64,000 nt of DNA from a virus (taxonomy: Duplodnaviria > Caudoviricetes): positions 3,519 to 67,518 of IMG/VR virus record IMGVR_UViG_3300033067_001375; one strand, given 5' to 3'. Shown here in pieces: positions 7,928-63,099 of the stretch. Below the pieces are notes generated by a model. It had not been told where the DNA came from. It ran no database searches and saw nothing but the letters and a program-made list of their open reading frames with translations. How positions within the stretch are numbered: position 1 is the first letter of the stretch; each line of letters begins with the position of its first letter. The translations under genes and the position numbers were made by a program.

Positions 7928-7963
7928 GCGACAAACTTCTGAGCGGTTGCGGCCTTGCATGTT
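7928..7963 (+). promoter_or_regulatory. Class A promoter-like motif (BCGMCNA-N17-GCCTT)
   Basis: GCGACAA-N17-GCCTTGCATGTT upstream of ORF 7980. Confidence 0.6.
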
Positions 7964-7979
7964 AGAAAGTGAGGGCGCT

Positions 7980-8216
7980 ATGGGGCCAACATACCGAAAC
8001 GCGGCTGAGCGAATCCAAAACGCTTGTGATGATTTCCAAGAGTTGATGACGGCCGCGCGTGATTTAGTGGGCGTTATTCATGCTACATCGCTTGGAATGT
8101 CTATTGATGGGCTCATGGATAACAGTACGCCGAAAGAATTTGTTGATGCTTTGATGGATCACAAAGTTTGGCAAACGTTCATTGACGCACTCACAGAGGT
8201 TGAGGACGAAAGGTGA
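7980..8216 (+). CDS. Hypothetical protein
   Basis: GAGGG SD and ATG downstream of the class A motif. Confidence 0.65.
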   Translation: MGPTYRNAAERIQNACDDFQELMTAARDLVGVIHATSLGMSIDGLMDNSTPKEFVDALMDHKVWQTFIDALTEVEDER

Positions 8217-8218
8217 GT

Positions 8219-8347
8219 ATGTTTTACGACGTGTTCGTGGTAGCGTTGCTGATTGCCTTGTTGGTGCTGGTGACGCATGTAATTACTACCGGGCCTCAAG
8301 GTAATCAGTACAAGCAGCTTGACGACGATGATAGCCCAACTCAGTGA
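8219..8347 (+). CDS. Small membrane peptide (42 aa)
   Basis: Read manually: MFYDVFVVALLIALLVLVTHVITTG...; AGGTGAG upstream. Confidence 0.5.
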   Translation: MFYDVFVVALLIALLVLVTHVITTGPQGNQYKQLDDDDSPTQ

Positions 8348-8585
8348 CCTTGAAAAAACGGCGCTATGGGGTTGGATTGAAGTGCCCGCCCTTGCCTTGT
8401 TGGCAATGTTTTCAGTTATCTTTTCCGTTTGGCATTTCGTGCGTTTTTTATATCCGGTGCTTAAAGAAACGTTTGAAGCGGCCTTGAGTAAGCGGCCGGG
8501 CGTTGAGCCTGAGCCCACGGTTGCAAGTAATCCGAAACCTTTTAGAGAGATTGATTTAGAGGATGATGATGGCAGCAAACCCTAG
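8328..8585 (+). CDS. Small membrane protein
   Basis: Central hydrophobic helix; overlaps both neighbours. Confidence 0.6.
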   Translation: MIAQLSDLEKTALWGWIEVPALALLAMFSVIFSVWHFVRFLYPVLKETFEAALSKRPGVEPEPTVASNPKPFREIDLEDDDGSKP

Positions 8586-9324
8586 CTATTACTCAGACGA
8601 GCGGCGCGTGGTTGAAGATCACTTAGACTATGACGCGATGACTGACAGTGAGCTTGACGCTGAGCACGCGAACGCGTTGTATGTTCTTGGTCTGCGTGAC
8701 CCCGACAAAACTCAGCGTGAGTGGGCGGTTGTTCACGTCAACAATATTGACAACCAGCGCAACAAGCGACGGCCAGCGCCAAGCCCGTGGTATCGTTTCA
8801 TTTTGTGGCTCATTGGTTTCACGCGGCCTTTCAAAGATTTGCAGAGCTACGCGGACAAGCTTGAGGCTGATCACGAAAAGGTTTTGATGGGCGAGGTTAC
8901 GTTCAAGAGTATGGCCTTTGAACGAGGACACGGTTTCACGGCCGTTGTTGGTTGTCGGCTTGCTGCTGATTTGGGTACGGTATGGCTTGACTGGCTCAAT
9001 GAGGTTGGCGCCGAAAACTACATTGAGCAAAAGCTGACTTGTCCAGATGGCTCATTTTTGGTAGTGACGATCAAGCGTGAGCGCGGCAAGAGCCCGCACG
9101 ATTTACGCAACCGTGCCGAGATCAACTTGCTTTGCACTCTCAATATGCTTGTTGATTATGTCAACGCTTGTGGTACGCCTTTGAGTAGCAGTCAACAAGC
9201 TATGTTTGACCGCGTGAAATCAGAGCTCAGGCCTGACTACGTGGATTGCGTTTCACCGTTCAAGTTTACCGACAAACAACCGCCGGCAATCGGCCTTGAG
9301 TCAAAAGGTGAGGGTGAGTTATGA
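8563..9324 (+). CDS. Hypothetical protein
   Basis: 253-aa ORF with a GAGGA SD. Confidence 0.75.
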   Translation: MMMAANPSYYSDERRVVEDHLDYDAMTDSELDAEHANALYVLGLRDPDKTQREWAVVHVNNIDNQRNKRRPAPSPWYRFILWLIGFTRPFKDLQSYADKLEADHEKVLMGEVTFKSMAFERGHGFTAVVGCRLAADLGTVWLDWLNEVGAENYIEQKLTCPDGSFLVVTIKRERGKSPHDLRNRAEINLLCTLNMLVDYVNACGTPLSSSQQAMFDRVKSELRPDYVDCVSPFKFTDKQPPAIGLESKGEGEL

Positions 9325-9587
9325 GCGGGCTTTACATCGCGATTGCGTTTGTGTTCATCAACTTGGTTTGGTCATTCGCCTATTGGCTTGGCTACTACGT
9401 TGGGCACAAGCACGGGCTCAGGGACGGTGTAGAGCAAGCTGAGCCGTTGCGATGGTATGCCGAATTTGTGGTCAAGGGCTTCGATCACATTGATGGTTGC
9501 GACAGTGGCCGTTGCTGCTACTACTGCGAAGCGGAATGGGCGTTAGAACGTTTCAACTATGGACCGTATCAAAATGGGCAAAAGTAA
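9321..9587 (+). CDS. Small membrane protein with Cys motif
   Basis: ATGA coupling; N-terminal TM segment; CDSGRCCYYC. Confidence 0.65.
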   Translation: MSGLYIAIAFVFINLVWSFAYWLGYYVGHKHGLRDGVEQAEPLRWYAEFVVKGFDHIDGCDSGRCCYYCEAEWALERFNYGPYQNGQK

Positions 9588-9852
9588 TTGTTTGGTGTTG
9601 GAGACGGTTGAGTTTCGTTTTAAGACGAAAACTAGCCAAGGGTTTTTGGCTGACTGGGTTTTGATATTCGCCAAGGACAAAGTAAGCGTTGGCGGAAACG
9701 GCAACGTTTACAACTATCGCATTCTCGACAAGAGCCTCAAGCCTTGTGAGACTCACGCGCGGCGGATAGTAGACTTTGCGGCCGGTGCTTCGGATATGCC
9801 GTTGCAGAATGTGCGCGGCGATGACAAGCCGTGCCTTGAGGTATTGGAATGA
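9574..9852 (+). CDS. Hypothetical protein
   Basis: Overlapping operon arrangement. Confidence 0.6.
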   Translation: MGKSNCLVLETVEFRFKTKTSQGFLADWVLIFAKDKVSVGGNGNVYNYRILDKSLKPCETHARRIVDFAAGASDMPLQNVRGDDKPCLEVLE

Positions 9853-10091
9853 GCGACAAAGTTGTTGTGTACCCAAGCGATTGGGAATTGTGCATAGCGT
9901 CACGCGAAGGGCTCAAGCCTTGCCCGTTTTGCGGAAGCGGCGTTAGTGCGTGCACTGAGCAAAACGTTGTCACGAAAAATTTCATCGCTTCGATATTCTG
10001 CGTTAGGTGCATGGCCCGTGTTAGTTACACAGCGGTCAAGAAATCAGAGGCTCAATCAAAGGTGGAGGCCAGTTGGCAATGCCGCGTGTAA
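9849..10091 (+). CDS. Lar-like (restriction alleviation) zinc-ribbon protein
   Basis: LKPCPFCG...IFCVRC motif. Confidence 0.65.
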   Translation: MSDKVVVYPSDWELCIASREGLKPCPFCGSGVSACTEQNVVTKNFIASIFCVRCMARVSYTAVKKSEAQSKVEASWQCRV

Positions 10092-10318
10092 CGATAGACG
10101 GAGTTGAGTACGTGCCACGGGCCGAAGTGCCAGAGCTCAACGATGAGCGATTGCAGGCGGCATTAGAGAGCCTGACAGAGATACAATATTTCAGCGATCA
10201 AAGGCACAAGCACAGAGCTTGGGCATGGGACGCCCTCAACGCGCTAGCGCCTGAGCTTGCAGAGTTGGCGGGTAGTAATCCTCAGGCGGCGTTTGACCGC
10301 GTGCGTGGCGACAAATGA
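10073..10318 (+). CDS. Hypothetical protein
   Basis: VTIDGVEYVP N-terminal motif common in phage small proteins; GGAGG SD. Confidence 0.65.
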   Translation: MAMPRVTIDGVEYVPRAEVPELNDERLQAALESLTEIQYFSDQRHKHRAWAWDALNALAPELAELAGSNPQAAFDRVRGDK

Positions 10319-10351
10319 TTCGGGCATGGTGGCGTTGCAAGTGGCTTTCTG

Positions 10352-10534
10352 ATGGGACATACGATGAGCACTACAAATAAGATTGACTTTTGCACGGCGG
10401 CGGCGGCCTTGCTATCGGTGTTTTTCTGCCTATTCAATTCCGGCGCAACCTGCGAGCTTGGTTGGTTTGTTGCGGCTATCGCGTGGTGCTTAGCGTCTTT
10501 TTGTTCTTTCAGATTGGCTTATCGCAATGAATAA
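10352..10534 (+). CDS. Small two-TM membrane protein
   Basis: Two hydrophobic segments. Confidence 0.5.
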   Translation: MGHTMSTTNKIDFCTAAAALLSVFFCLFNSGATCELGWFVAAIAWCLASFCSFRLAYRNE

Positions 10535-10757
10535 GCAAGCGGATGCGTTGCCGTTGCCGCCGGGTATTTGCTGGGTGTGCCGCGAAAAGGCCTCTCACGT
10601 CAGTTTTGGCGCGTTGTGCGAGGATTGTTGGGCAGACAGTATGGCCCGCTGCTTTCCGGCGCCTATGCGGCTCCCACGGCTTACAGAGCGGAAGCAAGAC
10701 ACCTGGGCTGAGGCGCGCCGGCGTGAAAGCGAATTGGCCGAACAAAAAGAATTCTGA
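10527..10757 (+). CDS. Small zinc-finger protein
   Basis: CWVC...LCEDC. Confidence 0.55.
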   Translation: MNKQADALPLPPGICWVCREKASHVSFGALCEDCWADSMARCFPAPMRLPRLTERKQDTWAEARRRESELAEQKEF

Positions 10758-10773
10758 AAACTTTCTGAATTGA

Positions 10774-10809
10774 GCGCCCAAGCGCCCGCCCGGTTGAGCC
10801 TTGTACTAT
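10774..10809 (+). promoter_or_regulatory. Class A promoter-like motif
   Basis: GCGCCCA-N17-GCCTTGTACTAT followed by a GGGCCAA/TTGGCCC hairpin. Confidence 0.7.
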
Positions 10810-10863
10810 GTGGGCCAAGTGATTTGGCCCGGTAGTAACTCTCAAAGATTGGGAAACAAGCAA

Positions 10864-14659: not shown

Positions 14660-15211
14660 GGGTATCTCAAGCAGTTCGCAAACCCGGTTGACGGCCGGCG
14701 CCGGGTAGTAGCTCACGCGTTTCAAGTTTGGCGTGAGTGGGCTTTGCACTCTCTTTGGTGCAAGCGTGGCTAAGAGTTTATCAACGTCTGAGCCGTGCGT
14801 TGCGTACAGTTGCAGACTATCGCGGCGGAAGTACAAGCCGGGTTTCGGTAGCATGGCAAGAGCGCACTTTCTAACCCACGGCATTCGCGTGAGCGTTCGT
14901 CCGTTTTCCTTCACTGTTTTGAGATAGCCGTTTTTGATGAGCCGCCAAAGTCTATCATGAGACGGCTGATCCGGTAGAATCAGAGCGGCCGCGTAAACCG
15001 TCAAGAGTTGCGGGTTGTCTATCTTGGGCTGAGCCGGCGCTTTGAGCCTGAGACGAAACACAAGCGCGGGTTTGTACGCCACGCGGCCGTTTAGGTGCAA
15101 GCTGACAGTGTTGCGATGCACGCCCAAGCGATTGGCGATCACGCGATTATCGACCCCGTTTTGAGCCCAATAGTGCAAGCGTTCAATGTCAGTCTCAGTT
15201 AGTTTTTGCAT
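14588..15211 (-). CDS. HTH DNA-binding protein, candidate late regulator
   Basis: N-terminal HTH VDNRVIANRLGVHRNTVSLHL; divergent from the portal gene. Confidence 0.7.
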   Translation of the reverse strand: MQKLTETDIERLHYWAQNGVDNRVIANRLGVHRNTVSLHLNGRVAYKPALVFRLRLKAPAQPKIDNPQLLTVYAAALILPDQPSHDRLWRLIKNGYLKTVKENGRTLTRMPWVRKCALAMLPKPGLYFRRDSLQLYATHGSDVDKLLATLAPKRVQSPLTPNLKRVSYYPAPAVNRVCELLEIPLRVPAYRISIAVTCLDQVGVHVI

Positions 15212-15233
15212 GTATGCACGCGGCGGTTAGAAT
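15205..15233 (+). promoter_or_regulatory. Class B (late-type) promoter-like motif
   Basis: TTTGCA-TGTATGCA...(17 nt)-TAGAAT upstream of the portal gene. Confidence 0.6.
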
Positions 15234-15257: not shown

Positions 15258-18200
15258 ATGAGCGTTGAAATTCGATTGCGTGAGTTGTTCGGGGACGTCG
15301 TATCGCCTGATTATACATTTGACGGTACCGGCGTCAGTTGGGGTTGGGACCGCACTGGGCGCGGCGTGTATACCAAGCTCTATGATCGAGCCAACGGCCG
15401 CTATTTGCCAGTGTTCGAAAATGAGCTTGACCTACGCGCCCTCAGGCAATCGGCTTGGCTCATGGCTGAGCGTGTGCCGATGGCCAAGTCTATCATTCAC
15501 GGCTTACAAAACTACACGATTGCCAGCGGGTTTGATTACAAGATAACGCACAGCAATCCTACCGTTGCTCAGATTTGCACCAAAGTATTCAAAAACTGGG
15601 AATCGAATTCCAAGTGGACAAGTCACCAAGAGCGTGATAGTTTCGCGGCCGAAATCGTCGACGGTGAGTTCATTGCTGAGCTATGTTGTGACGGCCCCGA
15701 TGTTTGCCTTGAGCCGCTTGAGGGTGACAATCTCACTGAGCCGCTTAACACAAATGACCTTGATGACTACTTTGAAATCAACGGGCCAACTGATTGGACG
15801 TTTGGCGTTTGCACGCGTGAAAACAAGTTTCGGCCGTTGCGTTATCACGTTGTGCGCAATGACACGGCTACAGACTGGGACGCCCTCAAGCCTTGCGAAA
15901 TAGTTCACTGGACCCGCAACGTTCCGGTCAAGGCCAAGCGCGGGTTTGGTGACTTCTACATTTGTCACCGATACTTGGGTCACGCTGACAAGCTTGCGAT
16001 CAATACGGCGATTGGTACGCAAACGCAAGCGGCCATTGCCTACATAGTTGAGCACGCGGAAGGCGCCCGAAAAGATTCGGTTATGAACATGCTAAACGGG
16101 CTCAGAAACGTTGTGCCCAACGCCTATGATCCGGTCACGGGCGACCCCAACATTCGCACAAAAAAGATTGTGCCCGGCCAGCGAATCGACATACCCTTCG
16201 GTGCCAAGTATCACGCCGGTTTGTTGGGCTCAAACGCAAGCAACATTTACATTGAAGTGATGGAGGCAATGTTGCGCATGGTTGGCACTGTGCGTCATTT
16301 CCCTGAGCACATGCTGACCGGATACGCGGGCAACAACAACATGGCTAGCAGCTTGGTTGCTGAGAGCCCGTTTGTTCAAGGTCGTGTTGCAGAGCAAGCG
16401 GTACGGTCATCACGGCTCAAAGAGCTCATCGTCAAGGTTCTGAAAAAGTTTTTCAATTCACCGTGGGCCAAGCAGCGCGGCTATTGTTGGGACGATGTTG
16501 AGGCCGGTCTTGAGATTACCATTAGCGCGCCTGAAATTGTGAGCCGCGACATTGGTGCGCTTACACTTGCACTCAAGAGCCAAATGGAATTGGGCCTATT
16601 GAGCAAGCGCACGGCCTCACAAAAGTTGTCTCTTGAGTTTGACGCTGAGCAAGCCAACATTAAGAGCGAATCGGCTGAGAGCGGCGGCGGTGAAGTTGGC
16701 GCCGATGGTCAACCGGTGGCGCCTGCCGGATCCGGTGTGTTGGCAAATAGCAACCGGGTACAGTTCAAGCGTGCACGCAAGAACGTTGCCGAAATCGTCA
16801 ATGACTTCACCAGCGGCGCGACGACACGCGTGCAAGCCGAAGTGCTCTTGAGCGCTCAAGGTTTCGGCCCGGCAGAAGTTGAAAAGCTACTCAATGAGCA
16901 AACGCCAAACGTGCAAGAAAGTCTTGTAAACCGATTGACAAAGCGGTTGATCCTCAAGCGTTCCAAGTCACTGCGCGAATCGGTACCGCGTAAACGTTTC
17001 AATGTTGCCCGGCTCTTTGAGTGGGATGAGTACGATCATCCGCGCGGCAGCGATGGTAAGTTTATAGGCAAGATGAGCGGTGTTGATTTGAGCGGTTGGA
17101 ATCCCAAACACGCGACGGCCAAGTGGGCGATCAACAAGATCGGAAAGCTTGAGCAGTTCGCTAAGGCTGGCCAATGGGATATGTTCGAAAGTGCACTGAG
17201 CAAGCCCGGCGGATCAACGCTCAACACGTATCAAAAAACTGTTCTCAAAGCACAAGCCAACTTGGCCAAGCTCAAGGTTGACACGGTGAGCGCGCCGCCT
17301 GAGGGTACAACGCCCAAGCTTGAGGCGCCTGAGCTCATCGACGGTAGCGGCTGGAAAAAGGTAGGCTCACAACTTGGCTCAGTTCAAGGCGGCACATACG
17401 TTGCGCCTGACGGTACAAAATACTACGTCAAGCACGGAGATGATCCGTTGCAAGCACGCAACGAAGTATTGGCCTCGAAGTTGTACCAAGCGTGCGGCGG
17501 TAACGCGTTGGATGTTGACTTGGTTGAAATCAACGGCAAGGTGGGCGTGTGTTCGAAGTGGGACGATTCGGCACAAGTGATTGATTGGGCAAGCTCACCT
17601 GACCTCAAGATTGAAGCGGCCAAAGATTATGCCTTGCACGCGTGGCTAAACAACTGGGATTGCGTTGGCCATATCAGCGATCAGACCAACATTAAAGCGA
17701 TCAACGGTAAGCCGGTGTTGATGGATGCCGGCGGTAGCCTCGAATCAAAAGCCACGGGCGGTATCAAACCGTTTGGTACGGTGCCTAGCACTTACAACGA
17801 TTTGCTCAAGCCCGGTATCAATCAGTCGACGGCTAGTGTGTTCGGCGGAATGACGCCGGCACAACACGTTGAAGCGATAAGCAAGCTTGAGAATATCAGC
17901 GATCAAGACATTGCCGACATGGTTACCAAGTTCGGCAACAAGGATACAGCAACCGCGACGATCAAGACGTTGATTGCACGGCGTGACGCTATCCTCGGCA
18001 TGAAAGAAAGCTTGCAAGCGGCCGCCGCAATGTCAACTGACGCCGTGCCAGCGGCTAACACGCCTGAGGCAAAAGTCAGAGGGCCAGCCGATGGCCAATT
18101 GCACAAAATGTTCGGCCTCACGCCGGCACACTATGACAGCGAGCTTGAGACGTTCACGCCTGACGGTTGGGGCATTATAGCCAAGGCCAAGGGATATAAA

Positions 18201-20027
18201 GACTTCGCCGCGATGGTTGGTGCTCACATGGGCGCGGTCACGAAAGTTGGGTTGGCTAAGAGCAAGTTTGACAAGCTCGAAGCATTATCACAGATACCCA
18301 AAGCGCCAGTTGTAGAGCAACAAGCGGCTAAACCTGATCCGGTAGCGGCGGCCGTTGAGGCTGGTGACAGCAACGCGGCTATCAACGCAATCGTCAAGTC
18401 AAAGCTTGCTGGTCAATACGGCTTAGATGCCGATTATGAATTGAAAGATTCGCCTAAATATGCGCCTTATGCGTTGTCGCCTATTGCACAGAAGAAAGGT
18501 TACAAGGGGTTGCTTGACCTCAAGTATCACTTGCCCGATGCTGTTAGCGCATGGGCGGCGGCTAGTGACTTCACTCAGCAAGCCAAGATTCTTGACGCGT
18601 TGCCAAGTAAGGATAATTTCGATTTGGTTATGGCAACCGGCGGTAGCCCAAGTGAAACGTTTAACAAAAAGCTCGACGATATTTTCAGTGGTGGTTTCAA
18701 AGCGCAACCGGCTAGCGCGCCAGTTGCGCCAGTCACGCCACTACATGAGCCATTGGTTGAGCCTGATCACTGGCAAACCAAGCCTGAGGCGATGGCGGCA
18801 AACGTCACGATGGCAGTACCGCCGCCTCCGATCATCACAAGCCCGGCCAACCAGGACAAAGCCAAGCTCTTGGCTAAGTTGCATGAAGCGGCCAAGACTG
18901 GTGATATAGCAGCGGTGCACGCGATACCGGTCAACATGGATGCCAAAAATACTTATGCCAAAAAGGTAACGGCTTACAAGCTTGCAGTGTTGGCGGCGCT
19001 ATCGTCCGGTGGCGTTGTGGATCCGGCACACGTTACGCCTCCGTCAACGGCTCCGGTTGAAACTGCGCCTGAGGTACCCGGAACAAAGGCGGGGGCACTG
19101 CCTACGCTCACCAGCAAGGTAATCAAGGGCGTTATCAAGCCTGAGCTATTCCCGGCCGCCCCTGAGTTCGTGAGCTCCAACGCGGCCAACGTAGAGGCCA
19201 ACAACGCGATTGTGACCAAGGCACTCTCACTTGCGGCCGCCGGTGACATTGAGGGGCTTGACGCTCAGAGCGCAACGTTGCCACCAAGCAACAAGCTCAA
19301 GACGTGGCACGCGTCACTATTGAGCACGGTGAAAGATCAAACTCAACCGCAAGTGCAACTAGACGGCTCTTATGCTGACTTCACCAAGGCGATTGGCGCG
19401 CTACCGGCCAAGGGTGCTAAGAAGGTTGGCTACTGGGCGGTTGTTAAAGATTTGGGCGGCGTACCGGCCGGGCTTCCAACTGGTGAATACAAGAGCGCAG
19501 AGTATTCCTATCTGCAAGATCACAACCCGGTTTTGAACAAGGGTTTTGAAAACTACGGAAAGAAACTGGACGGCAATGAAGGGCAAGCGATTGTTTCCTA
19601 CACCAACGGATCCTATGACGGGATAAATTCGTGGTTGCGTCACGGTAAAGGTGATTCGAAGTACAAGGAAAAAGCCAAGCAAGCGGCGGCCGCGATGGCC
19701 AAGGCTTCGCATGAGTTGCCAGTTGGTCTAAAACTCAGCCGCAAACACGACGGAGATATGAGCTCACTCAAGGTTGGTGAGGTTGTTGCTGAGGGTGGTA
19801 TACTATCAACTTCTACGGATCCATCGACGTGGAGCGGTTCGAATCATTGGCATATCACGATTGGCCCCGGCTGCAAAGGTTTGTCAACTCACAAGTTTTC
19901 AAGCCACAAAACAGAGGATGAGATTTTACTACCGCCCAACACGCGTTTGCTCATCACTCATATTGCGCCAGGTGACTACGGAAGCGGCCGAAAGATTCAA
20001 GCGGTTATGTTGCCAACGGTCGACTAA
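15258..20027 (+). CDS. Lambda-type portal protein fused to kinase-like and ADP-ribosyltransferase domains
   Basis: Portal at about aa 1-500; HPRGSDGKF motif at about aa 594; kinase-like domain (YYVK, EVLA.KLY, WLNNWD, D.GGSL) at about aa 699-915; ART with R (LSRK), STS and EDE motifs at the C-terminus. Confidence 0.88.
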   Translation: MSVEIRLRELFGDVVSPDYTFDGTGVSWGWDRTGRGVYTKLYDRANGRYLPVFENELDLRALRQSAWLMAERVPMAKSIIHGLQNYTIASGFDYKITHSNPTVAQICTKVFKNWESNSKWTSHQERDSFAAEIVDGEFIAELCCDGPDVCLEPLEGDNLTEPLNTNDLDDYFEINGPTDWTFGVCTRENKFRPLRYHVVRNDTATDWDALKPCEIVHWTRNVPVKAKRGFGDFYICHRYLGHADKLAINTAIGTQTQAAIAYIVEHAEGARKDSVMNMLNGLRNVVPNAYDPVTGDPNIRTKKIVPGQRIDIPFGAKYHAGLLGSNASNIYIEVMEAMLRMVGTVRHFPEHMLTGYAGNNNMASSLVAESPFVQGRVAEQAVRSSRLKELIVKVLKKFFNSPWAKQRGYCWDDVEAGLEITISAPEIVSRDIGALTLALKSQMELGLLSKRTASQKLSLEFDAEQANIKSESAESGGGEVGADGQPVAPAGSGVLANSNRVQFKRARKNVAEIVNDFTSGATTRVQAEVLLSAQGFGPAEVEKLLNEQTPNVQESLVNRLTKRLILKRSKSLRESVPRKRFNVARLFEWDEYDHPRGSDGKFIGKMSGVDLSGWNPKHATAKWAINKIGKLEQFAKAGQWDMFESALSKPGGSTLNTYQKTVLKAQANLAKLKVDTVSAPPEGTTPKLEAPELIDGSGWKKVGSQLGSVQGGTYVAPDGTKYYVKHGDDPLQARNEVLASKLYQACGGNALDVDLVEINGKVGVCSKWDDSAQVIDWASSPDLKIEAAKDYALHAWLNNWDCVGHISDQTNIKAINGKPVLMDAGGSLESKATGGIKPFGTVPSTYNDLLKPGINQSTASVFGGMTPAQHVEAISKLENISDQDIADMVTKFGNKDTATATIKTLIARRDAILGMKESLQAAAAMSTDAVPAANTPEAKVRGPADGQLHKMFGLTPAHYDSELETFTPDGWGIIAKAKGYKDFAAMVGAHMGAVTKVGLAKSKFDKLEALSQIPKAPVVEQQAAKPDPVAAAVEAGDSNAAINAIVKSKLAGQYGLDADYELKDSPKYAPYALSPIAQKKGYKGLLDLKYHLPDAVSAWAAASDFTQQAKILDALPSKDNFDLVMATGGSPSETFNKKLDDIFSGGFKAQPASAPVAPVTPLHEPLVEPDHWQTKPEAMAANVTMAVPPPPIITSPANQDKAKLLAKLHEAAKTGDIAAVHAIPVNMDAKNTYAKKVTAYKLAVLAALSSGGVVDPAHVTPPSTAPVETAPEVPGTKAGALPTLTSKVIKGVIKPELFPAAPEFVSSNAANVEANNAIVTKALSLAAAGDIEGLDAQSATLPPSNKLKTWHASLLSTVKDQTQPQVQLDGSYADFTKAIGALPAKGAKKVGYWAVVKDLGGVPAGLPTGEYKSAEYSYLQDHNPVLNKGFENYGKKLDGNEGQAIVSYTNGSYDGINSWLRHGKGDSKYKEKAKQAAAAMAKASHELPVGLKLSRKHDGDMSSLKVGEVVAEGGILSTSTDPSTWSGSNHWHITIGPGCKGLSTHKFSSHKTEDEILLPPNTRLLITHIAPGDYGSGRKIQAVMLPTVD

Positions 20028-22505: not shown

Positions 22506-22534
22506 TTTGCAAGTATGCAAACGCCAGAAAGAAT
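22506..22534 (+). promoter_or_regulatory. Class B (late-type) promoter-like motif
   Basis: TTTGCA-AGTATGCA...(17 nt)-AAGAAT; ATG 22542 lies near the expected +1. Confidence 0.55.
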
Positions 22535-43077: not shown

Positions 43078-43091
43078 TGTAAACGTTTACA
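43078..43091. promoter_or_regulatory. 14-bp palindrome (copy 10)
   Basis: Perfect copy; overlaps the -35 of a class B motif. Confidence 0.85.
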
Positions 43092-43114
43092 AGTATGCAC
43101 GCCCGCCGGATACT
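43086..43114 (+). promoter_or_regulatory. Class B (late-type) promoter-like motif
   Basis: TTTACA-AGTATGCA...(17 nt)-GATACT upstream of the membrane/peptidase operon. Confidence 0.55.
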
Positions 43115-46909: not shown

Positions 46910-47119
46910 ATGACTCGAAAATGGCGTCACTTCAAACACGGTGATATGCGGCTGATGGGACAAGTTGAGCCCAAGGATATTTTGGAGCTCAACTACAACG
47001 TCAGCCGTTGTATCAACGTTACTCACCTGAGCGAAAACTTGGCTGAGTTTATTTGTGACGCGCTCAACAACGAATTGCCGTTGAATCTTGAGCACGCGTT
47101 GCAAGCCAGCCGGGCTTAG
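46910..47119 (+). CDS. Hypothetical protein
   Basis: GGAG SD; last gene of the plus-strand operon. Confidence 0.55.
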   Translation: MTRKWRHFKHGDMRLMGQVEPKDILELNYNVSRCINVTHLSENLAEFICDALNNELPLNLEHALQASRA

Positions 47120-47349
47120 ATATCGCCGATGATTTCTTGCAACTCAGTTGATGACCAGTTGCCGGAAGTTGCTACGCGGCGAAGCGTTTTCTTGTAAAGA
47201 TCACGCTCCTCACGCAGGCGGGCGTTTTCGGTTTCCAGATTGTCTACCTGTTTTGCAAGTGCCGTTGTTGTCGACGTGGAGTTAGTCAACTCCAAAATTC
47301 TCTGTCTGAGGCGGGCGTTTTCTTGCTCAGCCTGTTCGAGCTTGTTCAT
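47116..47349 (-). CDS. Small coiled-coil protein
   Basis: Heptad pattern; GAGGG SD after a palindrome variant. Confidence 0.65.
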   Translation of the reverse strand: MNKLEQAEQENARLRQRILELTNSTSTTTALAKQVDNLETENARLREERDLYKKTLRRVATSGNWSSTELQEIIGDI

Positions 47350-47570
47350 TCGAGCCAGCCCTCATTTGTAAACGTTTCAAGCGGCAAGCACTCACACAAA
47401 GTCTTGGGTCGTTGGCAGCGGCCGCAACGGCAAACAGCGGACGGCTCGGGCCAAGGTTTTTTTCGCTCACGCTTGGCTGAGCACTCTCGGCAACGATTGA
47501 CAATCACTGAGTTGGTAGTCAAGCAGTTGCGGCAAATCCAATTGTCGCCATCAAGCCCTTGGTTGTTCAT
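47346..47570 (-). CDS. RanBP2-type zinc-finger protein
   Basis: WICRNCLTTNSVIVNRCREC fits W-x-C-x2-C-x3-N-x6-C-x2-C exactly. Confidence 0.65.
   Translation of the reverse strand: MNNQGLDGDNWICRNCLTTNSVIVNRCRECSAKRERKKPWPEPSAVCRCGRCQRPKTLCECLPLETFTNEGWLE
47367..47380. promoter_or_regulatory. Palindrome variant (12/14)
   Basis: TGTAAACGTTTCAA, 17 nt upstream of minus-strand ATG 47349. Confidence 0.65.
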
Positions 47571-48159
47571 GACGCCTTGCCGTTTGAAGATTTGAGCGAA
47601 GCGAAGCAACCAGCGCCAGCGCGGCAACGTGAGCGTCGGCCGCCCAAGCGTGTGCGGATTGGGTAACATTTTTCCTCGTAAACATAGCGGTCAGATTGAC
47701 AGTTGCAATGCAGCGTTCGAGAGACTCAAGACGCCTCTCAATGCGTCGCGCCTCATCAAGTAGGTTTTCTACTTCGATAGCCTCTACGTCCTCAGTGTGC
47801 TTGCTGAGAACGGTTGCAATACGGTCAAAAATCTCAACCAAGTAACGGGCGTTATCGCGTTGGCAAACGGTTGCGAATAAAAACGCGGCGTCAACCTCAT
47901 CAAGATCCAATAGCCGGGCGGCCTCATCCTCAAAGAGCTCACCGTCAAAGGCTTCGCTTTCGGTGTTGGCGTCCTCATTGGCGGCGTAGCAAACCCAAGC
48001 GGCTAACCCGGCTTTCGTCGTGCTAGCGTCAAGTAAGAGCCCAAGCAAGCTGTCAACACAATCGCGGTCTTGGCCATCAATAACAAACCCGCAATCAGCA
48101 ACCTTGTTGCGGTTGGCTTGCATGAGTGAGCGGGTCTTTTCCAGTAGTTTGACGTTCAT
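47551..48159 (-). CDS. Hypothetical protein
   Basis: 202-aa ORF downstream of a class A motif and leader. Confidence 0.7.
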   Translation of the reverse strand: MNVKLLEKTRSLMQANRNKVADCGFVIDGQDRDCVDSLLGLLLDASTTKAGLAAWVCYAANEDANTESEAFDGELFEDEAARLLDLDEVDAAFLFATVCQRDNARYLVEIFDRIATVLSKHTEDVEAIEVENLLDEARRIERRLESLERCIATVNLTAMFTRKNVTQSAHAWAADAHVAALALVASLRSNLQTARRHEQPRA

Positions 48160-48206
48160 TTGCTTGGTTCCTTAGGCTTGATTTACCGGGGCTACCGTTG
48201 CCCCTT

Positions 48207-48242
48207 GTAATGATAGGCTCAACCCGTGTCACCTTTGGGCGC
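48207..48242 (-). promoter_or_regulatory. Class A promoter-like motif
   Basis: GCGCCCA-N17-GCCTATCATTAC on the minus strand. Confidence 0.65.
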
Positions 48243-48254
48243 TAATTCGCGAAA

Positions 48255-48719
48255 TTATTTTTCGGGATTTGCGCCAACAGATGCGGCGATTTCTTCGTTG
48301 GTCAGTTGCTTGCCGCTTTTGAGGCTAGCCAACAGAGCAATGTCGGTTTCCGATGGTGCGCCAAGCTTGGCATAATCTTCGGCCGAAATGCCGATTGACG
48401 CGGCCAGCCGGCCGAAAGCCTCAGTGAGCTTTTGGTTGTAGTAGCAAAGGAAACGCAAGCGATCAGAGCGAAAGGCAGGGGCGCCGTTCTTTCTTTTGGC
48501 GGCTCGCGTTGGCTTGTTGACAGTGATGCCAACGGCCTCAACGACCTCATCAATAACGCCGTCCGTGACAACCATACCGTTGAAGTTTTTGCGGATCAAG
48601 TTGGCTAACTCATCGGGCGTTTTGTTGTCAATGAGTGACTTGTTGACAGTGGCCCACATGACAATTTTCATTGCATCGGCGCGGTTGGTCACGGTACGTG
48701 GCTTTTTGTTCGTGTTCAT
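48255..48719 (-). CDS. Hypothetical basic protein
   Basis: AAGGGATGAG upstream of ATG 48719. Confidence 0.7.
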   Translation of the reverse strand: MNTNKKPRTVTNRADAMKIVMWATVNKSLIDNKTPDELANLIRKNFNGMVVTDGVIDEVVEAVGITVNKPTRAAKRKNGAPAFRSDRLRFLCYYNQKLTEAFGRLAASIGISAEDYAKLGAPSETDIALLASLKSGKQLTNEEIAASVGANPEK

Positions 48720-48817
48720 CTCATCCCTTTGGTGAATTCTGGAAACTGAAACTGATCGGAAATTCCTAACGCAATTACAAGGCTCACTAGCGGCTAAGAT
48801 TTGTCGGGTATTTTTTT

Positions 48818-48831
48818 TGTAAACGTTTACA
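48818..48831. promoter_or_regulatory. 14-bp palindrome (copy 11)
   Basis: Perfect copy at the left edge of the non-coding control region. Confidence 0.85.
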
Positions 48832-49004
48832 AACTTTTGCAGCAATGCGGCCTTGTATCTTCGGAGGGTTCAATATGTCTAACGCTGTTTTGTTCTTGGA
48901 TTGTGATGGGGTAATCAACGGCAACTCAAGCCCGCGATCACGCCGGGTTGGTGGCTTTGAGCATGCGCTACAGATGGCTTGACGTATCTTGCAGATGGCA
49001 ACGC

Positions 49005-49032
49005 TTGACAATTTCCGCCCGGCGTTTATTAT
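49005..49032 (+). promoter_or_regulatory. Sigma70-type promoter
   Basis: TTGACA-N16-TATTAT; the predicted +1 is just before the 18-bp stem at 49041. Confidence 0.6.
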
Positions 49033-49040
49033 TTGTGCAC

Positions 49041-49197
49041 GGGGTTGTCAGTCCTGCCAAAATACCCGTTGTTGAGTGAGGCGTTGTAAACCTCAAACAG
49101 CAACGGGTTTTTTCGTGTCAAAATTGTATCGACAGATTGACCTACCGAATCGGCCGCTTATCCTTGTACGAACGCGCCGGGCAGGATTGACAACCCC
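49041..49197 (+). ncRNA. Candidate structured ncRNA (about 157 nt)
   Basis: Ends pair over 18 nt with one G-U; internal 11-bp hairpin 49064-49111; no ORF. Confidence 0.5.
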
Positions 49198-49625
49198 TTC
49201 CCGGCGCCAGTGATCATTTGAGTTCATGGCGACTGGAAAGAGGCGATAGATTCGGCGCACGATATCGGGCCTGGGGTGGACCCCTCAGAAGTTATCGAGG
49301 CGGGTGATGTTCGCTAATCTCTGCGCACGCTATGCGCTCATGCAACACGGCCCGATGAGCCGTGGGGGTCAGACACGCGGCAAGCGTGGACGGACAAAAG
49401 GCCTCACCAGCCTCAAGCCAACGTTGAAGTGAAATAAACCGGGCAACGCCACCCAGCGACCCGGTCGGCGGCGCTCAATGACGATTGGCAACCCTTGGGG
49501 GTCAACATGCCCTCAATGCTAGGTCAGTTAGGCAAACCTTCCCGGTCAATCGGCGGCCGCTCAATACCGCCGGACATGGGGGTGGCGCGCCTTGTGGGCA
49601 GAAAAAAGAAATATTTTGAAAATAG

Positions 49626-49662
49626 GCGCCTAACTTTTCCGCCAAGCCGGCCTTGATGTTAT
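49626..49662 (+). promoter_or_regulatory. Class A promoter-like motif
   Basis: GCGCCTA-N17-GCCTTGATGTTAT upstream of the AAA ATPase. Confidence 0.7.
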
Positions 49663-49712
49663 GTGGGCAGTGAGCCCGGTAAACAAGCAAGCAAGTGTAA
49701 AGGGTAAAAGCG

Positions 49713-51263: not shown

Positions 51264-51267
51264 TTTT

Positions 51268-51281: not shown

Positions 51282-51500
51282 AGCCGCCCGGCCGATAAAT
51301 ACAAAATTGGCCGGGATGGCTTGATCCGCCTACGCGGCGGAGCTAGACTGTCCCCCGGTAAATAAGCAAGCACGCAAATGATTGCGGCAAACTCTCTAAA
51401 ACAATATGGGCCTTAGGTCAGCCGCCCCGCGAAAGCGGCGGTTTGCTTGACCGACCAAGCGGTTGACCTCTGGCCCTCCTTTCAAGATGAAAGATTGCAA

Positions 51501-52070
51501 ATGACAACTCTCGAACTGGCTATCAGCGGTGATTCTGACGCGGCCGCCCAAGTGATCGAAAACGTTGCCAAGCGTGTTCGGTATCTTTGCACCAAAGCGA
51601 ACTACAAAATTACGGCCGTACGTGCGGACGCAGATGACGCGGCTCAAATGGCCCTTGTGCGAATCTATCAAGCTCTTGTTGGCGGTGACTGTGCCGTCAT
51701 GGATCCAAACGCGTTTGGCTGGTTCGTGTTTCGCCAAGCCCGTAACGCGTGCCGTCTGATCGAAAATACACACGGCCGCAAAAAGCGTGAGATAGCCAGG
51801 GAGGCCGCAAGCTTCGATGATGCTGACGCCGGTTGTACGGTTGTCAGCAGTGACAAGCCGGCCGATGAGCGAGCCGTAGAAACAGAGCTCATCGGCGCAC
51901 TTATGGCCATGGTCAAGCGTGATGATGACCGGGCGATACTCAACGGCATTCTTGACGGCATGACGATCAATGAGATTGCCGCCGGCCTCAAGGTTTCCCC
52001 AGCGTTTGTTTACACGCGTCTACAGAAGATTCGCGCAAAGGCGCGTACTCAGTTGGCGCAATTGGTCTAG
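51501..52070 (+). CDS. ECF-type RNA polymerase sigma factor
   Basis: Region 2 (A..GD..A....; DADDAAQ.AL; FGWF...ARN) and region 4 HTH (GMTINEIA..L.VS...VYTRL.KIR). Confidence 0.88.
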   Translation: MTTLELAISGDSDAAAQVIENVAKRVRYLCTKANYKITAVRADADDAAQMALVRIYQALVGGDCAVMDPNAFGWFVFRQARNACRLIENTHGRKKREIAREAASFDDADAGCTVVSSDKPADERAVETELIGALMAMVKRDDDRAILNGILDGMTINEIAAGLKVSPAFVYTRLQKIRAKARTQLAQLV

Positions 52071-55344: not shown

Positions 55345-56100
55345 ATGGCTTTCAAGATCGGTGATTCGGTTTACATCAAACACGCTGGCATTGTTTTGTA
55401 CAGCGCAACCGTCGTTGATCCGATGCCCGGCGAAAAATGGGTTACTGTGCATGGCTACAACCTGGGCATTAAATACGACAAAGAGCAATTGCACAAAAAC
55501 GTTGTCCGTGTGCGTGAGAGTAATGTTGAGAAAGCCTTGGCGGGTGACGTGCCTTGTTGCAACGTGCACGGCGGAAAGCTTGTAAGGCGAACGGGCAAGC
55601 GGCGAACGTTCCACGCGTGCCCTGAGTGTGATGTTGGTTGGTGGGAAAGGGACGCCTACAAAACAGTTTCCTATCCGGCCAACCAAGCTGTCAGAACAGC
55701 ACGTCTTGAGCTCTGTAAACTCATGCCGGTAAATTGCAGCTACACCTACAAAGTCATGGCGTTTGTGATCGAAAAAACTGGCGGCTCAATCGGGCGGCTC
55801 AACTTCAAAGAGTGCCAAGATTTAACGCGTATCTGCAAGCGCGGCGGCGTGATGCGTTTCGATGACTGGGACGGCAATTGTTGGCGGCTCAGTAGTCTTG
55901 AGGGCGATGAGGCCTACGCAAACGTTGGCCTTGATCGAATGCCCGGCTACTGCAATCGGCACGCGTTTGACCCGGTAACTATGTGGTGCGGATTCTGTGG
56001 CGTCAGCGCAGAGCTTGTAAGATTTGGGACGACAAAAGTTGATCCAAAGGCGGCCTTTAATAGTACCAAGCCAACTGTTTGGCGGGAAATCGAATTGTAG
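55345..56100 (+). CDS. Multi-domain protein with a DUF3268-like zinc finger
   Basis: CNVHGG...FHACPECD...PANQAVRTAR; C-terminal HAFD...CGFCG. Confidence 0.65.
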   Translation: MAFKIGDSVYIKHAGIVLYSATVVDPMPGEKWVTVHGYNLGIKYDKEQLHKNVVRVRESNVEKALAGDVPCCNVHGGKLVRRTGKRRTFHACPECDVGWWERDAYKTVSYPANQAVRTARLELCKLMPVNCSYTYKVMAFVIEKTGGSIGRLNFKECQDLTRICKRGGVMRFDDWDGNCWRLSSLEGDEAYANVGLDRMPGYCNRHAFDPVTMWCGFCGVSAELVRFGTTKVDPKAAFNSTKPTVWREIEL

Positions 56101-60081: not shown

Positions 60082-60114
60082 TAACCCTTAGAGAACGTAG
60101 AAAGATTCTGGATT

Positions 60115-61152
60115 ATGACAACGAAGAAAAAGACAACCACCAAGGCGCAGGGAACGCGGCCGCCGGCTGAGGATGTTTGGCAGATTGCGACGGTTCCACT
60201 TGCGGACGTGGTTTTGAATCCCGATTATCAGATGAGAGTTGAGGCGCGGTCTCCGTCTGAGTATTTCGAAGCGATTGTAAACCGCAACGGTGATTGGCCG
60301 TTTCCGCCGATCAAGTGTTGTGAGGTTCGCGGAAAGCTGATTTGTGTTGATGGCTTTACGCGTTGCCAAGCGGCTCTTGATTACGTTGCTGAAAAGAGTG
60401 TTGAAGGGTTCTCTATTCCGGTTTCGTACAAGAAAGCGACGGCGCGTGAGGCGTTGATTGAGGCGTTGAAGTCTAACGCCGATCACGGTTACCGGCGCAC
60501 CAACGCGGATAAGCGAAACGCTGTGTTGCGGGCAATCGGTGCGATGCCAACGGCGACGGCTCACAAGATTGCTGACGCTTGCAGTGTGAGCCATACATAC
60601 GTTTACACAATCAAGGCGCAACTCACAACTGATAGCGAAGCGCCAACGGCTGAGCAAGTGACCGCGACGGCCGCCGATCATGAGGCCAACGCGGCGGCTG
60701 AGACGTTGCATCAAGAGCAACTGACGGCGGCTGAGAACAAACAGAAAGAGCTTGGCGCGTGCCCCAACTGCAAAGTCAAAGGCCGCTGGATTGAGCGCGA
60801 TGACGGTTGGGTATGTGGTGACTGTTTACACCCGCACGGTGAGCCGGCGGGCAATGAGGATGAAAAAGAGGCTGAGCCGGTGGCGCCAAAAACGCCTGAG
60901 CCTGAGCCCGTGACCGTTGATGAAACAACGCCGTCCGGTTTCGAGGTGCCCGATGTAGAGCAACCGGATGACACCAAGAAAAACAGCAAGCCAGCCAAGC
61001 CAACGGCGGCTATGCTCAACTTGCGAGCGGACAAGATCAAGAAAGCCAAGGCGGCCGTTGGTGTGATCGTTCGCATTGCTGACGACCTTGGGTTCACTGA
61101 TTCGATTACTTCGGCGATTGAAGCGATACAAGCCAAGCTTGCAGAGGGCTAA
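60115..61152 (+). CDS. ParB-like N-terminal domain plus HTH protein
   Basis: FPPI....V.G.L..VDGF.R..A; SNA.HG..RT..DKR.AV; HTH TAHKIADACSVSHTYV. Confidence 0.8.
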   Translation: MTTKKKTTTKAQGTRPPAEDVWQIATVPLADVVLNPDYQMRVEARSPSEYFEAIVNRNGDWPFPPIKCCEVRGKLICVDGFTRCQAALDYVAEKSVEGFSIPVSYKKATAREALIEALKSNADHGYRRTNADKRNAVLRAIGAMPTATAHKIADACSVSHTYVYTIKAQLTTDSEAPTAEQVTATAADHEANAAAETLHQEQLTAAENKQKELGACPNCKVKGRWIERDDGWVCGDCLHPHGEPAGNEDEKEAEPVAPKTPEPEPVTVDETTPSGFEVPDVEQPDDTKKNSKPAKPTAAMLNLRADKIKKAKAAVGVIVRIADDLGFTDSITSAIEAIQAKLAEG

Positions 61153-61154
61153 CC

Positions 61155-61463
61155 ATGAGCGGATCAGAGATTGATTATCACTTTGCGTTTGAGCACTTCG
61201 AACGCGAAGTGAGGCCGGTTGTTATCTGGCGCGTTGTGTTTAGCACGGCGGCGGGCAACGCCAACGCGTTACAGTTGACGCGGTACTATAGCGGGCATGA
61301 TGCAAAAGAAAAAGTTGACGCGATTGCGGCCGACAAAACTAAGCGCGTTATCAGCGTTGATAAGTACGTGATGGCGTTGAATAGCTCATTGAAGGATCAG
61401 AAACTTGCAATCGTTAATACCATGCCTACCGCCGCTCAAGAGTCACCAAAGCAAGGGACTTGA
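61155..61463 (+). CDS. Hypothetical protein
   Basis: GAGGG SD. Confidence 0.6.
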   Translation: MSGSEIDYHFAFEHFEREVRPVVIWRVVFSTAAGNANALQLTRYYSGHDAKEKVDAIAADKTKRVISVDKYVMALNSSLKDQKLAIVNTMPTAAQESPKQGT

Positions 61464-63063
61464 TGCGTTCAATGTTCAGCGCGCAAATGAGCCTGAGTTA
61501 CCCTCACTGCTTGTGAGCCCGCCGGGCTCAGGCAAAAGCCGAATGATGCTTGAGCTTGCGGTTGCTGAGTTAGCACGGCCCAACGGCTTGACGGTACTCA
61601 AGGCCCATAGGCGCATGCTCATTGAGCAATTGCAAGCCAACTTTGAAACGGCCGGCATTGAGTACGGCATGATAGCTGACGGATACCCGTACAACCCCGA
61701 CGCCCGTATTCAGCTTGTGTCAAGTCAAACGCTCTACGCACGGGCGGTACAACGCGGCACGATTGACATGCCAAAGGCAACGCTTGTCATTGATGATGAG
61801 GCTCACCAACAGACCGGCAAAATGCAAAGGGCGATGGTCTATGGATCATTCCAAGATAACACGGTGCAAGAGGGCTTCGCGACGAATGGCGCTTACGTGT
61901 GCGGCTTCACGGCCTCACCACTCATGGGCGCGGCCATCTATCAACGGTTGATCAACGTTGCTAGTTATTCAGAGCTACGCGACTGTGGTATGCACCAACT
62001 TGTCAAAGTGTTCGGCCCCGATGAGATTGACACGGCCGGGCTCAAGATGACTCAAGCCGGTGAATACTCAGAGAAGAAACTAGAGGAGCGCGTACAAGTA
62101 ATTTTTGGCAGCGTGTATGCCGAATGGAAAGCGCTAAACACGGCCGCTTACCCGGCCATCTTGTACGCCCCAAGCGTTAAGTCAAGCCGATGGTTTGCAA
62201 CTGAGTTTTTGAAAAAGGGCGTTCGCGTTGCGCACCTCGACGGTGAGCAAGCGTTGATTCCTGAGGGCAACAAGTTGGTCACCTACGCGGCCGATAAGGA
62301 TATCAGGCGGCAACTATTGGAAATGAGCAAGAGCGGTGAGATTGCTATGATCAGCAACCGTTTCGTGTTGCGTGAGGCAATCGACATGCCTTGGCTTTAT
62401 CACGGCATTTTTGCGACCGTGATGGGTAGCTTGACTACCTACCTACAAAGCGTTGGCCGGCTTCAACGTTTTTGGTCTGCATACGATCACAAAATATTGC
62501 AATGTCACGGGGGCTCATACTGGCGCCACGGCTCACCAAACGAAGATAGAACGTGGCGGCTTGGCGTCACAAACCAGCAAGCGCAGAAAGAGCGCATAGA
62601 AAAGATACTCAAGGGTGAACGGCCTGAGGGCATACGGTGCCCGCGTTGTGGTTTCTGGCAACGAAGCGGCCAAGCGTGCCTCAATGAAAATTGCCGACAT
62701 GATCACAAGGGCGTCAGCGTTCGAATGGTTCGAAGTGTGGCGGGTAAGCTCAAGGCGATGACCGGGGCAGTGTATCGCGCACCAAGCAACGATGATGAGG
62801 TAAATAAATTTTGGCGCAAGATTCTTTTCATGTGCGGCAAGGACAATGCGTCAGTCTCAAGCGCGGTTGCCATATTCATTGCCGGTTGCAATAAGCGCGG
62901 TTGGATCCCTGACACAAGCAAACTCACCAACAAGGTGCCCGCCCAAGATTCGATGATGTGGCATAGAAAGGTTGCAGTTGTTTACCCGTGGACCGTGCGT
63001 GCCAAGGTAGTGGCTAAGTCTGAGACGGCCCAACAACCAGTGAGAGAGCTCGATTTAGATTAA
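61405..63063 (+). CDS. Superfamily 2 helicase (RadD/YejH-like) with C-terminal zinc finger
   Basis: SPPGSGKS, DDEAH, GFTASP, LREAIDMP, QSVGRLQR and CPRCG motifs. Confidence 0.92.
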   Translation: MQSLIPCLPPLKSHQSKGLDAFNVQRANEPELPSLLVSPPGSGKSRMMLELAVAELARPNGLTVLKAHRRMLIEQLQANFETAGIEYGMIADGYPYNPDARIQLVSSQTLYARAVQRGTIDMPKATLVIDDEAHQQTGKMQRAMVYGSFQDNTVQEGFATNGAYVCGFTASPLMGAAIYQRLINVASYSELRDCGMHQLVKVFGPDEIDTAGLKMTQAGEYSEKKLEERVQVIFGSVYAEWKALNTAAYPAILYAPSVKSSRWFATEFLKKGVRVAHLDGEQALIPEGNKLVTYAADKDIRRQLLEMSKSGEIAMISNRFVLREAIDMPWLYHGIFATVMGSLTTYLQSVGRLQRFWSAYDHKILQCHGGSYWRHGSPNEDRTWRLGVTNQQAQKERIEKILKGERPEGIRCPRCGFWQRSGQACLNENCRHDHKGVSVRMVRSVAGKLKAMTGAVYRAPSNDDEVNKFWRKILFMCGKDNASVSSAVAIFIAGCNKRGWIPDTSKLTNKVPAQDSMMWHRKVAVVYPWTVRAKVVAKSETAQQPVRELDLD

Positions 63064-63099
63064 GCGACGAAACTTTCAAACGATTAGGCCTTGAGTGAT
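63064..63099 (+). promoter_or_regulatory. Class A promoter-like motif
   Basis: GCGACGA-N17-GCCTTGAGTGAT directly before ATG 63100. Confidence 0.6.

Follow-up and report, generated by a model that had tools for sequence, protein, structure and literature searches.

A bipartite motif of 29 nucleotides (nt), here called class A, recurs at 14 strong sites in the genome of an uncultured river phage (Duplodnaviria; Caudoviricetes), and no other reading fits it nearly as well as a promoter class. Judging from the sequence, the sites are probably some 14 promoters for the host core RNA polymerase combined with a sigma factor of extracytoplasmic function (ECF) type that the phage itself encodes at 51501-52070. 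The genome is the linear, 67,518-bp virus record IMGVR_UViG_3300033067_001375 (53% G+C), of which bases 3519-67518 (64,000 nt) form the window analysed here, and near-identical DNA is present in several riverine metagenome runs. Because the record is linear and 68% complete according to CheckV, the count of class A sites is a lower bound. A first-pass annotation of the window had taken the motif for a candidate target of the phage sigma, and its proposal of a phage-specific, rigidly spaced, promoter-like class at the operon starts of non-structural genes is supported by the present analysis. Phage-private sets of sigma factor and promoters are a well-known strategy; the novelty lies in the sigma family, in the consensus, its GCCTT box above all, and in the use of the class for non-structural genes.

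Motif, spacing and placement

The pattern BCGMCNA-N17-GCCTT has 13 exact matches against 0.32 +/- 0.57 expected (100 dinucleotide shuffles, shuffle maximum 3), which establishes the bipartite motif as real. The 17-nt spacer, said earlier to be the same in every case, is indeed fixed: over the whole 67.5-kb record, CG[AC]C.A-N{k}-GCCTT gave 15 matches at k = 17 and 0-3 at any other k between 8 and 27. A weight matrix built from the class A sites (leave-one-out scores 9.9-31.3 bits) places the 14 strong sites at 24.7-35.6 bits and four weaker ones at 9-19 bits, compared with a maximum of 18.5 and a mean maximum of 9.4 in 20 background shuffles. Thirteen strong sites lie inside the window and one lies 1.3 kb upstream of it. 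The sites are as follows.

7928..7956, plus strand: class A, GCGACAA-N17-GCCTT, right after the terminase stop codon; 23 nt to ATG 7980; 35.6 bits (leave-one-out 31.3)
9269..9297, plus strand: class A, within the final 55 nt of gene 8569-9324; 23 nt to ATG 9321; 28.1 bits
10774..10802, plus strand: class A, 61 nt to ATG 10864, with a 5' hairpin after the site; 24.8 bits
12563..12591, plus strand: class A, 44 nt to ATG 12636; 34.2 bits
20020..20048, plus strand: class A, overlapping the stop codon of the 1589-aa portal fusion; 25 nt to ATG 20074; 25.0 bits
22472..22500, minus strand: class A, facing leftward genes 22382-21340 from the gap in which they diverge from the head genes; 33.6 bits
48779..48807, minus strand: class A, in the control region, facing the leftward gene 48719-48255; 28.8 bits
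49626..49654, plus strand: class A, 58 nt to the AAA ATPase gene (49713), with no consensus-spaced copy closer on the 5' side of the sigma gene; 35.6 bits
53368..53396, plus strand: class A, 59 nt to ATG 53456; 31.3 bits
54480..54508, plus strand: class A, 42 nt to ATG 54551; 28.4 bits
56029..56057, plus strand: class A, in tandem with 56100 and within the 3' end of gene 55345-56100; 26.9 bits
56100..56128, plus strand: class A, 18 nt to ATG 56147, upstream of recombination and helicase genes; 24.7 bits
63064..63092, plus strand: class A, right after the helicase stop codon; 30.0 bits
L130:2231-2259, outside the window: class A, preceding a stretch free of open reading frames (ORFs)
10308..10336, plus strand: weaker variant with downstream box GCGTT; 16.3 bits
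61330..61358, plus strand: weaker variant, again with GCGTT, 5' of the gene for the SF2 helicase; 18.6 bits
48826..48854, plus strand: weaker variant with TT for the invariant CG, 20 nt to a 35-aa ORF, its upstream box being the right half of palindrome 48818-48831; 17.3 bits
48214..48242, minus strand: marginal variant ending in GCCTA, 54 nt to the leftward gene 48159-47551; 9.2 bits (mean shuffle maximum 9.4)

Ten of the 11 sites originally listed are thus exact (7928, 10774, 12563, 20020, 22500(-), 49626, 53368, 54480, 56100 and 63064) and the eleventh, 48242(-), is imperfect; it has GGTTGAGCCT in common with site 10774. That list was incomplete, missing 9269(+), 48807(-) and 56029(+), the site beyond the window and the GCGTT variants 10308 and 61330. 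The weak copy at 48826(+) does overlap the palindrome, as had been stated. One exact match, 36803-36831(-), is set aside as chance: it lies antisense within an 883-aa ORF and scores below 8 bits in the weight matrix, and one chance match is the number that the pattern's expectation allows.

From 5' to 3' the consensus consists of an A+T-rich stretch, s-C-G-m-C-w-A-A-(c), T-rich positions 10-13, a G+C-rich variable spacer, (t/s)(G)-G-C-C-T-T-(G) and an A+T-rich patch. Among the 12 pattern-selected sites A7 is found in 12/12 (imposed by the selecting pattern), A8 in 10/12 and C9 in 5/12, and T prevails at positions 10-13 (6-8/12). A CGCCTA variant of the upstream box also occurs. The downstream box, whose unusually GC-rich character had been pointed out before, is G-CCT-T in all strong sites; CGT occurs in the weak variants 10308 and 61330 only, a sign that the sequence at least admits it. 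Exactly 16 nt lie between AA(C), at positions 7-9, and C(C/G)TT. The geometry agrees with the rigidly spaced bipartite ECF design, in which published promoters combine an AAC-type -35 and an adjoining T-tract with a C-x-T -10 box 16 nt further on (PMC5758882). More generally, published ECF promoters carry AAC in their -35, and the T-tract proximal to it (tGAAACnTTTt) stimulates certain ECF sigmas; their -10 is short, group-specific and often CGT, their spacers span 14-17 bp and their sites stay near the consensus (PMC5758882).

All 14 strong sites lie at gene junctions and point towards the next gene, on both strands, in keeping with the first-pass description. Called start codons lie 18-133 nt past GCCTT, except at the site outside the window (416 nt). 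Five strong sites overlap the final 1-72 nt of the preceding gene and none lies antisense or deeper in a gene. Since the pre-gene zone covers about 11% of strand-positions, placement of 14/14 strong sites within it is not chance. The gaps at 56100 (18 nt) and at 7928 and 9269 (23 nt each) leave space for a Shine-Dalgarno sequence only. The site outside the window precedes an ORF-free stretch of ~416-420 nt, which argues that the signal is not coupled to translation. Compared with a genome-wide 47%, A+T content is 70-74% between -14 and -5 and 70% over the five bases that follow GCCTTG, which bears out the AT-rich stretch reported after the motif; the mean over -20 to -1 (63%) was reached in 0/5000 resamples. 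A repeat search found the 29-nt core to be the only conserved unit, which ruled out membership of a longer repeated cassette.

The phage sigma factor

The sequence and a structure model both indicate that the product of 51501-52070 is a divergent but complete ECF-type sigma, as had been annotated.

51501..52070, plus strand: ECF-type sigma gene, 189 aa, proposed reader of the motif

It passes the PF07638 (Sigma70_ECF) cut-off (32.2 bits, cut-off 21.1) and aligns over 1-165/165 with TIGR02937, where its 39.0 bits lie below the cut-off of 42.9 and a relative that is 69% identical (P0003) scores 43.4. The acidic core-binding motif DxxDxxQ(E) of region 2.2 contacts the beta' clamp helices (PMC13147305). 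In the phage protein DxxDxxQ is retained as D43-A-D-D46-A-A-Q49-M, with D46 and Q49 invariant in 10/10 aligned family members. The family profile matches the solved ECF sigmas CnrH, SigW and RpoE (sigmaE) over almost the full length. An AlphaFold2 model (mean predicted local distance difference test score 78.6) has helical domains at 1-104 and 121-188 joined by a disordered linker at 104-118, and its top Foldseek matches are all ECF sigmas (sigmaE, AlgU, SigW, CnrH, SigL and SigH). The sigma2 domain of the model superposes on region 2 of E. coli sigmaE with a template modelling score of 0.74 and a root-mean-square deviation of 2.7 A. The protein is thus made up of sigma2 and sigma4 with a short linker, with neither region 1.1 nor region 3.

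Besides the generic PF07638, no bacterial ECF family fits the protein at curated cut-offs, and no anti-sigma was recognised beside the gene. Its kin are few. Two close relatives were found among 5.8 billion clustered proteins (P0002, 79% identical, and P0003) and about eight full-length kin among 1.84 billion representative proteins, all from metagenome assemblies; relatives P0002-P0015 lie on contigs of up to 66 kb. The sigma and two family alignments matched no locus when searched against viral, metagenome and genome contigs, and a word-seeded scan of the genomes of 185,579 bacterial and archaeal species returned no sigma relative. By language-model features the nearest clusters are PF07638 ECFs, chiefly of Planctomycetota, which makes a planctomycete host a lead only. 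The G+C content of the phage would suit some freshwater planctomycetes, again no more than a host lead, and to our knowledge no phage transcription programme has been described for planctomycetes. Terminase matches at ~30% identity are intein-bearing mycobacteriophage genes and uninformative on the host.

Occurrence of motif and sigma elsewhere

A motif of ECF-type geometry and a single identified sigma gene, itself of ECF type, occur in the same record, and the copy at 49626 stands on the same strand 1.9 kb 5' of the sigma gene, before the AAA gene, with no strong terminator noticed in between. Elsewhere, CGMCWAACTTT-N11-GGCCTTG has three single matches in IMG/VR and at least 119 single matches in metagenomes. 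No motif array was seen on any other IMG/VR contig or among the at least 119 metagenome loci listed, and no sigma relative accompanied the motif at any viral or metagenome locus listed. Metagenome loci with two or three relaxed matches, those that were read, resembled chance matches in coding sequence. Five related phage records, whose AAA proteins are 32-43% identical, encode no sigma and carry 0-1 motif match each, which is the control level; they include one that is 91% complete with an AAA protein 43% identical and two with a capsid protein 53% identical. The rarity of motif and sigma, and the existence of relatives without both, argue against a widespread host promoter type; a host-specific sigma as reader is compatible with that rarity.

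A weak sigma-profile match in one relative (L003) was rejected as a sigma, the similarity being confined to a sigma4-type helix-turn-helix. By DNA, by sigma (tblastn) and by capsid protein, the 50,697 deposited phage genomes yielded no relative of the phage.

Alternative readings

That the motif belongs to a host alternative sigma, of ECF or other type, as the first-pass annotation had also allowed, is rather unlikely. On this account the phage sigma would recognise some other sequence or be superfluous, and infection would exploit or trigger the host factor for the non-structural genes. ECF-type geometry is silent on whose sigma is concerned, and the nearest look-alikes of the phage protein, bacterial PF07638 ECFs mostly from Planctomycetota, make a captured host specificity conceivable. 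Class A sites moreover precede the earliest-looking genes on both flanks of the control region, where no phage protein would yet exist. Against this, host ECF sigmas are normally kept inactive and would be a risky dependency for 14 promoters, and a common host sigma reading the motif should have left arrays on other viral contigs or among the metagenome loci listed, where there are none; the related phages lack arrays too. The phage also encodes a complete sigma with its core-binding residues intact, and no other ECF-like motif was noticed for it to read, no formal motif discovery having been run.

Distinctly more improbable is that the boxes bind a phage transcription factor, either one that redirects the sigma-70 holoenzyme, by appropriation or activation as at T4 middle promoters, or a repressor for which they would be operators. 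Many phage proteins have no assigned function, a 14-bp palindrome in the genome shows that sequence-specific regulators exist in the phage, and the upstream box is partly like TTGACA (cCGACAa). The CGCCTA variant, however, hardly resembles TTGACA, the two boxes do not repeat one another in either direct or inverted orientation, and no TAnnnT -10 box follows either of them at a fixed distance. Strict co-orientation and a single spacing fit a sigma better than an operator.

Scarcely credible is a signal other than a promoter, whether in RNA or DNA (processing, translational operator, recombination or packaging): hairpins do follow several sites, and the upstream edge of 56029 is a point where strains vary and contigs break, as they would at a recombination hot spot, but the spacer is unconserved, the halves are unable to pair, the 7-133 nt to start codons are no fixed translational signal, and mosaic joints, being common at phage promoters, are no argument against promoter function.

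Several narrower candidates were also discarded. A sigma-70 promoter class was rejected, with no TAnnnT at a fixed offset after either box and no class A site listed by genome-wide consensus scans; a MotA-like box combined with a sigma-70 -10 was dropped, as was base pairing between the two boxes; and the likeness of GCCTTGA to a sigma-32 -35 was not accompanied by a CCCCAT box at a fixed distance.

We infer that the phage sigma is the reader, that transcripts start at the sites and that the units follow a temporal order, and several points weigh against this interpretation. The link between sigma and motif is co-occurrence in one genome, and no RNA run containing the phage was found among the public runs listed. 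The downstream box has CCT instead of the common CGT and the C of AAC is weakly conserved (5/12); as published -10 boxes are group-specific, CCT lowers the likeness to the ECF class and does not exclude it. A host sigma of the same specificity is conceivable. If the phage sigma were needed for nearly all non-structural genes, the early phase would be unusually small. The only 11/12 sigma-70 match in 67 kb, at 49005, is not significant by count alone, and a long hairpin and T-run lie ~60-110 nt past it (window 49005-49115), which makes read-through to the sigma gene an assumption. Finally, the motif-like copy nearest to the sigma gene, at 51385, is spaced by 19 nt and not 17, so that direct autoregulation would require the sigma gene to be transcribed together with the AAA gene, across the 237 nt that separate the two.

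Proposed transcription programme

Our own gene calls comprise ~100 genes, almost all on the plus strand. The parts of the map that bear on transcription are these.

5672-7927: terminase gene with intein
15258-20027: portal fusion, 1589 aa
22542 to ~46900: head/tail block
47116-48719, minus strand: leftward gene group
48720-49712: control region, 1 kb
After the control region, plus strand: rightward non-structural block with AAA ATPase, sigma, YqaJ exonuclease and SF2 helicase
49005..49032, plus strand: candidate sigma-70-type promoter TTGACA-N16-TATTAT, the only good intergenic co-oriented match, upstream of the AAA-sigma genes
51385-51414: class A-like element CGGCAAAC...GGGCCTT with a 19-nt spacer, ~90 nt before the sigma start codon

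At each class A site, sigma4 would bind the upstream box sCGmCwAA(c), aided by the adjoining T-tract, the AT-rich stretch further 5' would serve as an UP-like element, and sigma2 would melt the DNA at (G)GCCTTG, a fixed 16 nt past AA(C), with transcription beginning ~6-9 nt past GCCTT. The cycle would open with the host sigma-70 holoenzyme firing at 49005, a proposed host-read entry point 600 nt further upstream than 49626, and reading through into the AAA and sigma genes. Once made, the new sigma would activate the whole of class A, to either side of the control region and at each non-structural unit, with positive feedback through 49626, the copy that lies 5' of the sigma gene itself; the element at 51385 could be a weak or decayed autoregulatory copy. 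Among the targets would be the genes for replication and recombination, the clusters of small genes that lie between the terminase and portal genes, and two leftward units. Other signals would serve the head/tail block (22.5-47 kb), in which class A does not occur. Such a map would make the phage sigma a middle-type factor, as SPO1 gp28 is, and not a late one like the sigma of Salmonella phage 7-11. The 'early/middle' timing given to the class in the first-pass annotation we infer from gene content only.

Sigma-70-like matches at 10/12 or more positions number three in the whole record, against 6.8 in shuffles. A second motif, TTTRCAWGTATGCAM, has three copies against 0.07 expected, at 15205-15219, 22506-22520 and 43086-43100 (+), which adjoin the upstream side of the portal gene, the protease/scaffold gene and gene 43164. 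The copies carry sigma-70-like hexamers, TTGCAw-N16-(T/A)AGAAT or TTTACA-N17-GATACT, with a conserved spacer, and may be sigma-70-type late promoters.

A bolder joint reading is less likely than not. Nearly the whole non-structural programme, at least 14 units including an ORF-free 420-nt RNA with ends like those of tRNA or transfer-messenger RNA (tmRNA), would depend on a private ECF-like sigma with a GCCTT -10 that breaks the CGT rule, sigma-70 would serve only one entry and perhaps three late promoters, the host would perhaps be a planctomycete, and sigma and promoters would form an orthogonal pair with 14 natural strength variants.

The finding opens no long-standing question. If the assignment is true, sequence by itself suffices to map the transcription units of an uncultured river phage of 67 kb, and the sigma and its 14 natural promoter variants are a compact candidate for an orthogonal expression pair. 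It would also be one more indication of the extent to which -10 boxes of ECF type may depart from CGT, and an instance of a phage using its own sigma for non-structural and not late genes.

Comparison with known systems

The closest tested precedent is the set of late promoters of Salmonella phage 7-11. There the host core RNA polymerase with the phage sigma SaPh711_gp47 reads eight GTAAtg-N16-aCTA promoters, and the cycle begins from two sigma-70 promoters (PMC8948821); an earlier bioinformatic prediction had placed the sigma gene behind both promoter types (PMC4331800), and the promoters were later revised by experiment (PMC8948821). Both phages have a divergent sigma and a low-copy, well-conserved bipartite promoter, here a putative one, with a fixed ~16-nt spacer. 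As two do in 7-11, a host sigma-70 promoter would start the cycle here, and the layout of 49005 and 49626 before the sigma gene resembles the prediction of PMC4331800, since revised. The sigmas, in contrast, have no detectable similarity (tblastn, 50,697 phage records), the consensus differs, and the class serves late virion genes in 7-11, whereas here it stands before non-structural genes and does not occur in the head/tail block. The system of 7-11 is proven by experiment.

With bacterial ECF promoters, such as those of B. subtilis sigmaW, sigmaV, sigmaX and sigmaM (PMC5758882) and of E. coli sigmaE, the motif shares two short boxes, a rigid spacer within 14-17 bp and near-consensus sites; its AA(C) and T-rich run approach the AAC-type box with T-tract, and 49626 may be a copy upstream of the sigma's own operon. 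It differs from them in its invariant CG-M-C 5' extension, the weak third base of AAC and GCCTT(G) in place of CGT, and the sigma differs in being phage-borne and in lacking a recognised neighbouring anti-sigma. The authors of the ECF reclassification state that phage ECF-like sigmas fall outside their scheme (PMC7826278). As is proposed here, phage phiEco32 has a sigma that takes over from sigma-70 after the early phase and a private promoter class, but its gp36 recognises a single AATGTA element centred at -11.5 and needs the cofactor gp79 (PMC12276001), whereas the present motif has two conserved boxes and no gp79-like protein was identified in the phage.

A likeness to sigma-28 lies in the register TAA-N16-GCC, formed by TAA at positions 6-8 and GCC at 25-27. 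Promoters of sigma-28 (FliA) have the consensus TAAA-N15-GCCGATAA, a lead here and not a test. The class A box has CTT instead of a CGA core, and the phage sigma lacks region 3 and matches ECF sigmas ahead of sigma-28 in fold and profile.

Further observations at and around the sites

Comparison with four DNA runs gave 306 strain differences, 40 of which are listed. At 55949-56030 a related strain in one riverine run has 83 different letters in place of the 80 nt before site 56029, and contigs of two further runs break exactly at 56030; a mosaic joint thus coincides with the upstream edge of that site. Several class A sites are followed by hairpins. At 63093-63102 an in-frame ATG lies 7 nt past the GCCTT of site 63064, the gene caller having chosen a start at 63226. 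As transcription would begin 6-9 nt past GCCTT, a leaderless start is possible there, on the message of a DUF3268 zinc-finger protein.

Past the site outside the window, in the ORF-free stretch, the ends of L130:2268-2560 (window -1250 to -960) resemble the acceptor-T arm of a tRNA or tmRNA, GGGGGGUAGCUCAUUAGGAUCGAC ... GGAGGUUCGAAACCUCCCCCCC; ARAGORN and Rfam (E up to 10) were negative for the stretch and its fold z-score is -0.8.

The 14-bp palindrome TGTAAACGTTTACA occurs at 48818-48831 and at 15 other places (for example 3663, 26961, 51268 and 59017). A T-run usually adjoins its 5' end, and most copies precede a ribosome-binding site by 6-20 nt. The control-region copy sits between the divergent sites 48807(-) and 48826(+), providing the upstream box of the latter, a position that makes it operator-like there. 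An 18-nt element, CCGGTAAAYAAGCAAGCA, is present in two identical copies against 0.16 expected, one at 49676-49693, past a 5' hairpin in the AAA gene leader, and one at 51355-51372, upstream of the sigma gene; shorter look-alikes lie downstream of sites 10774 and 54480.

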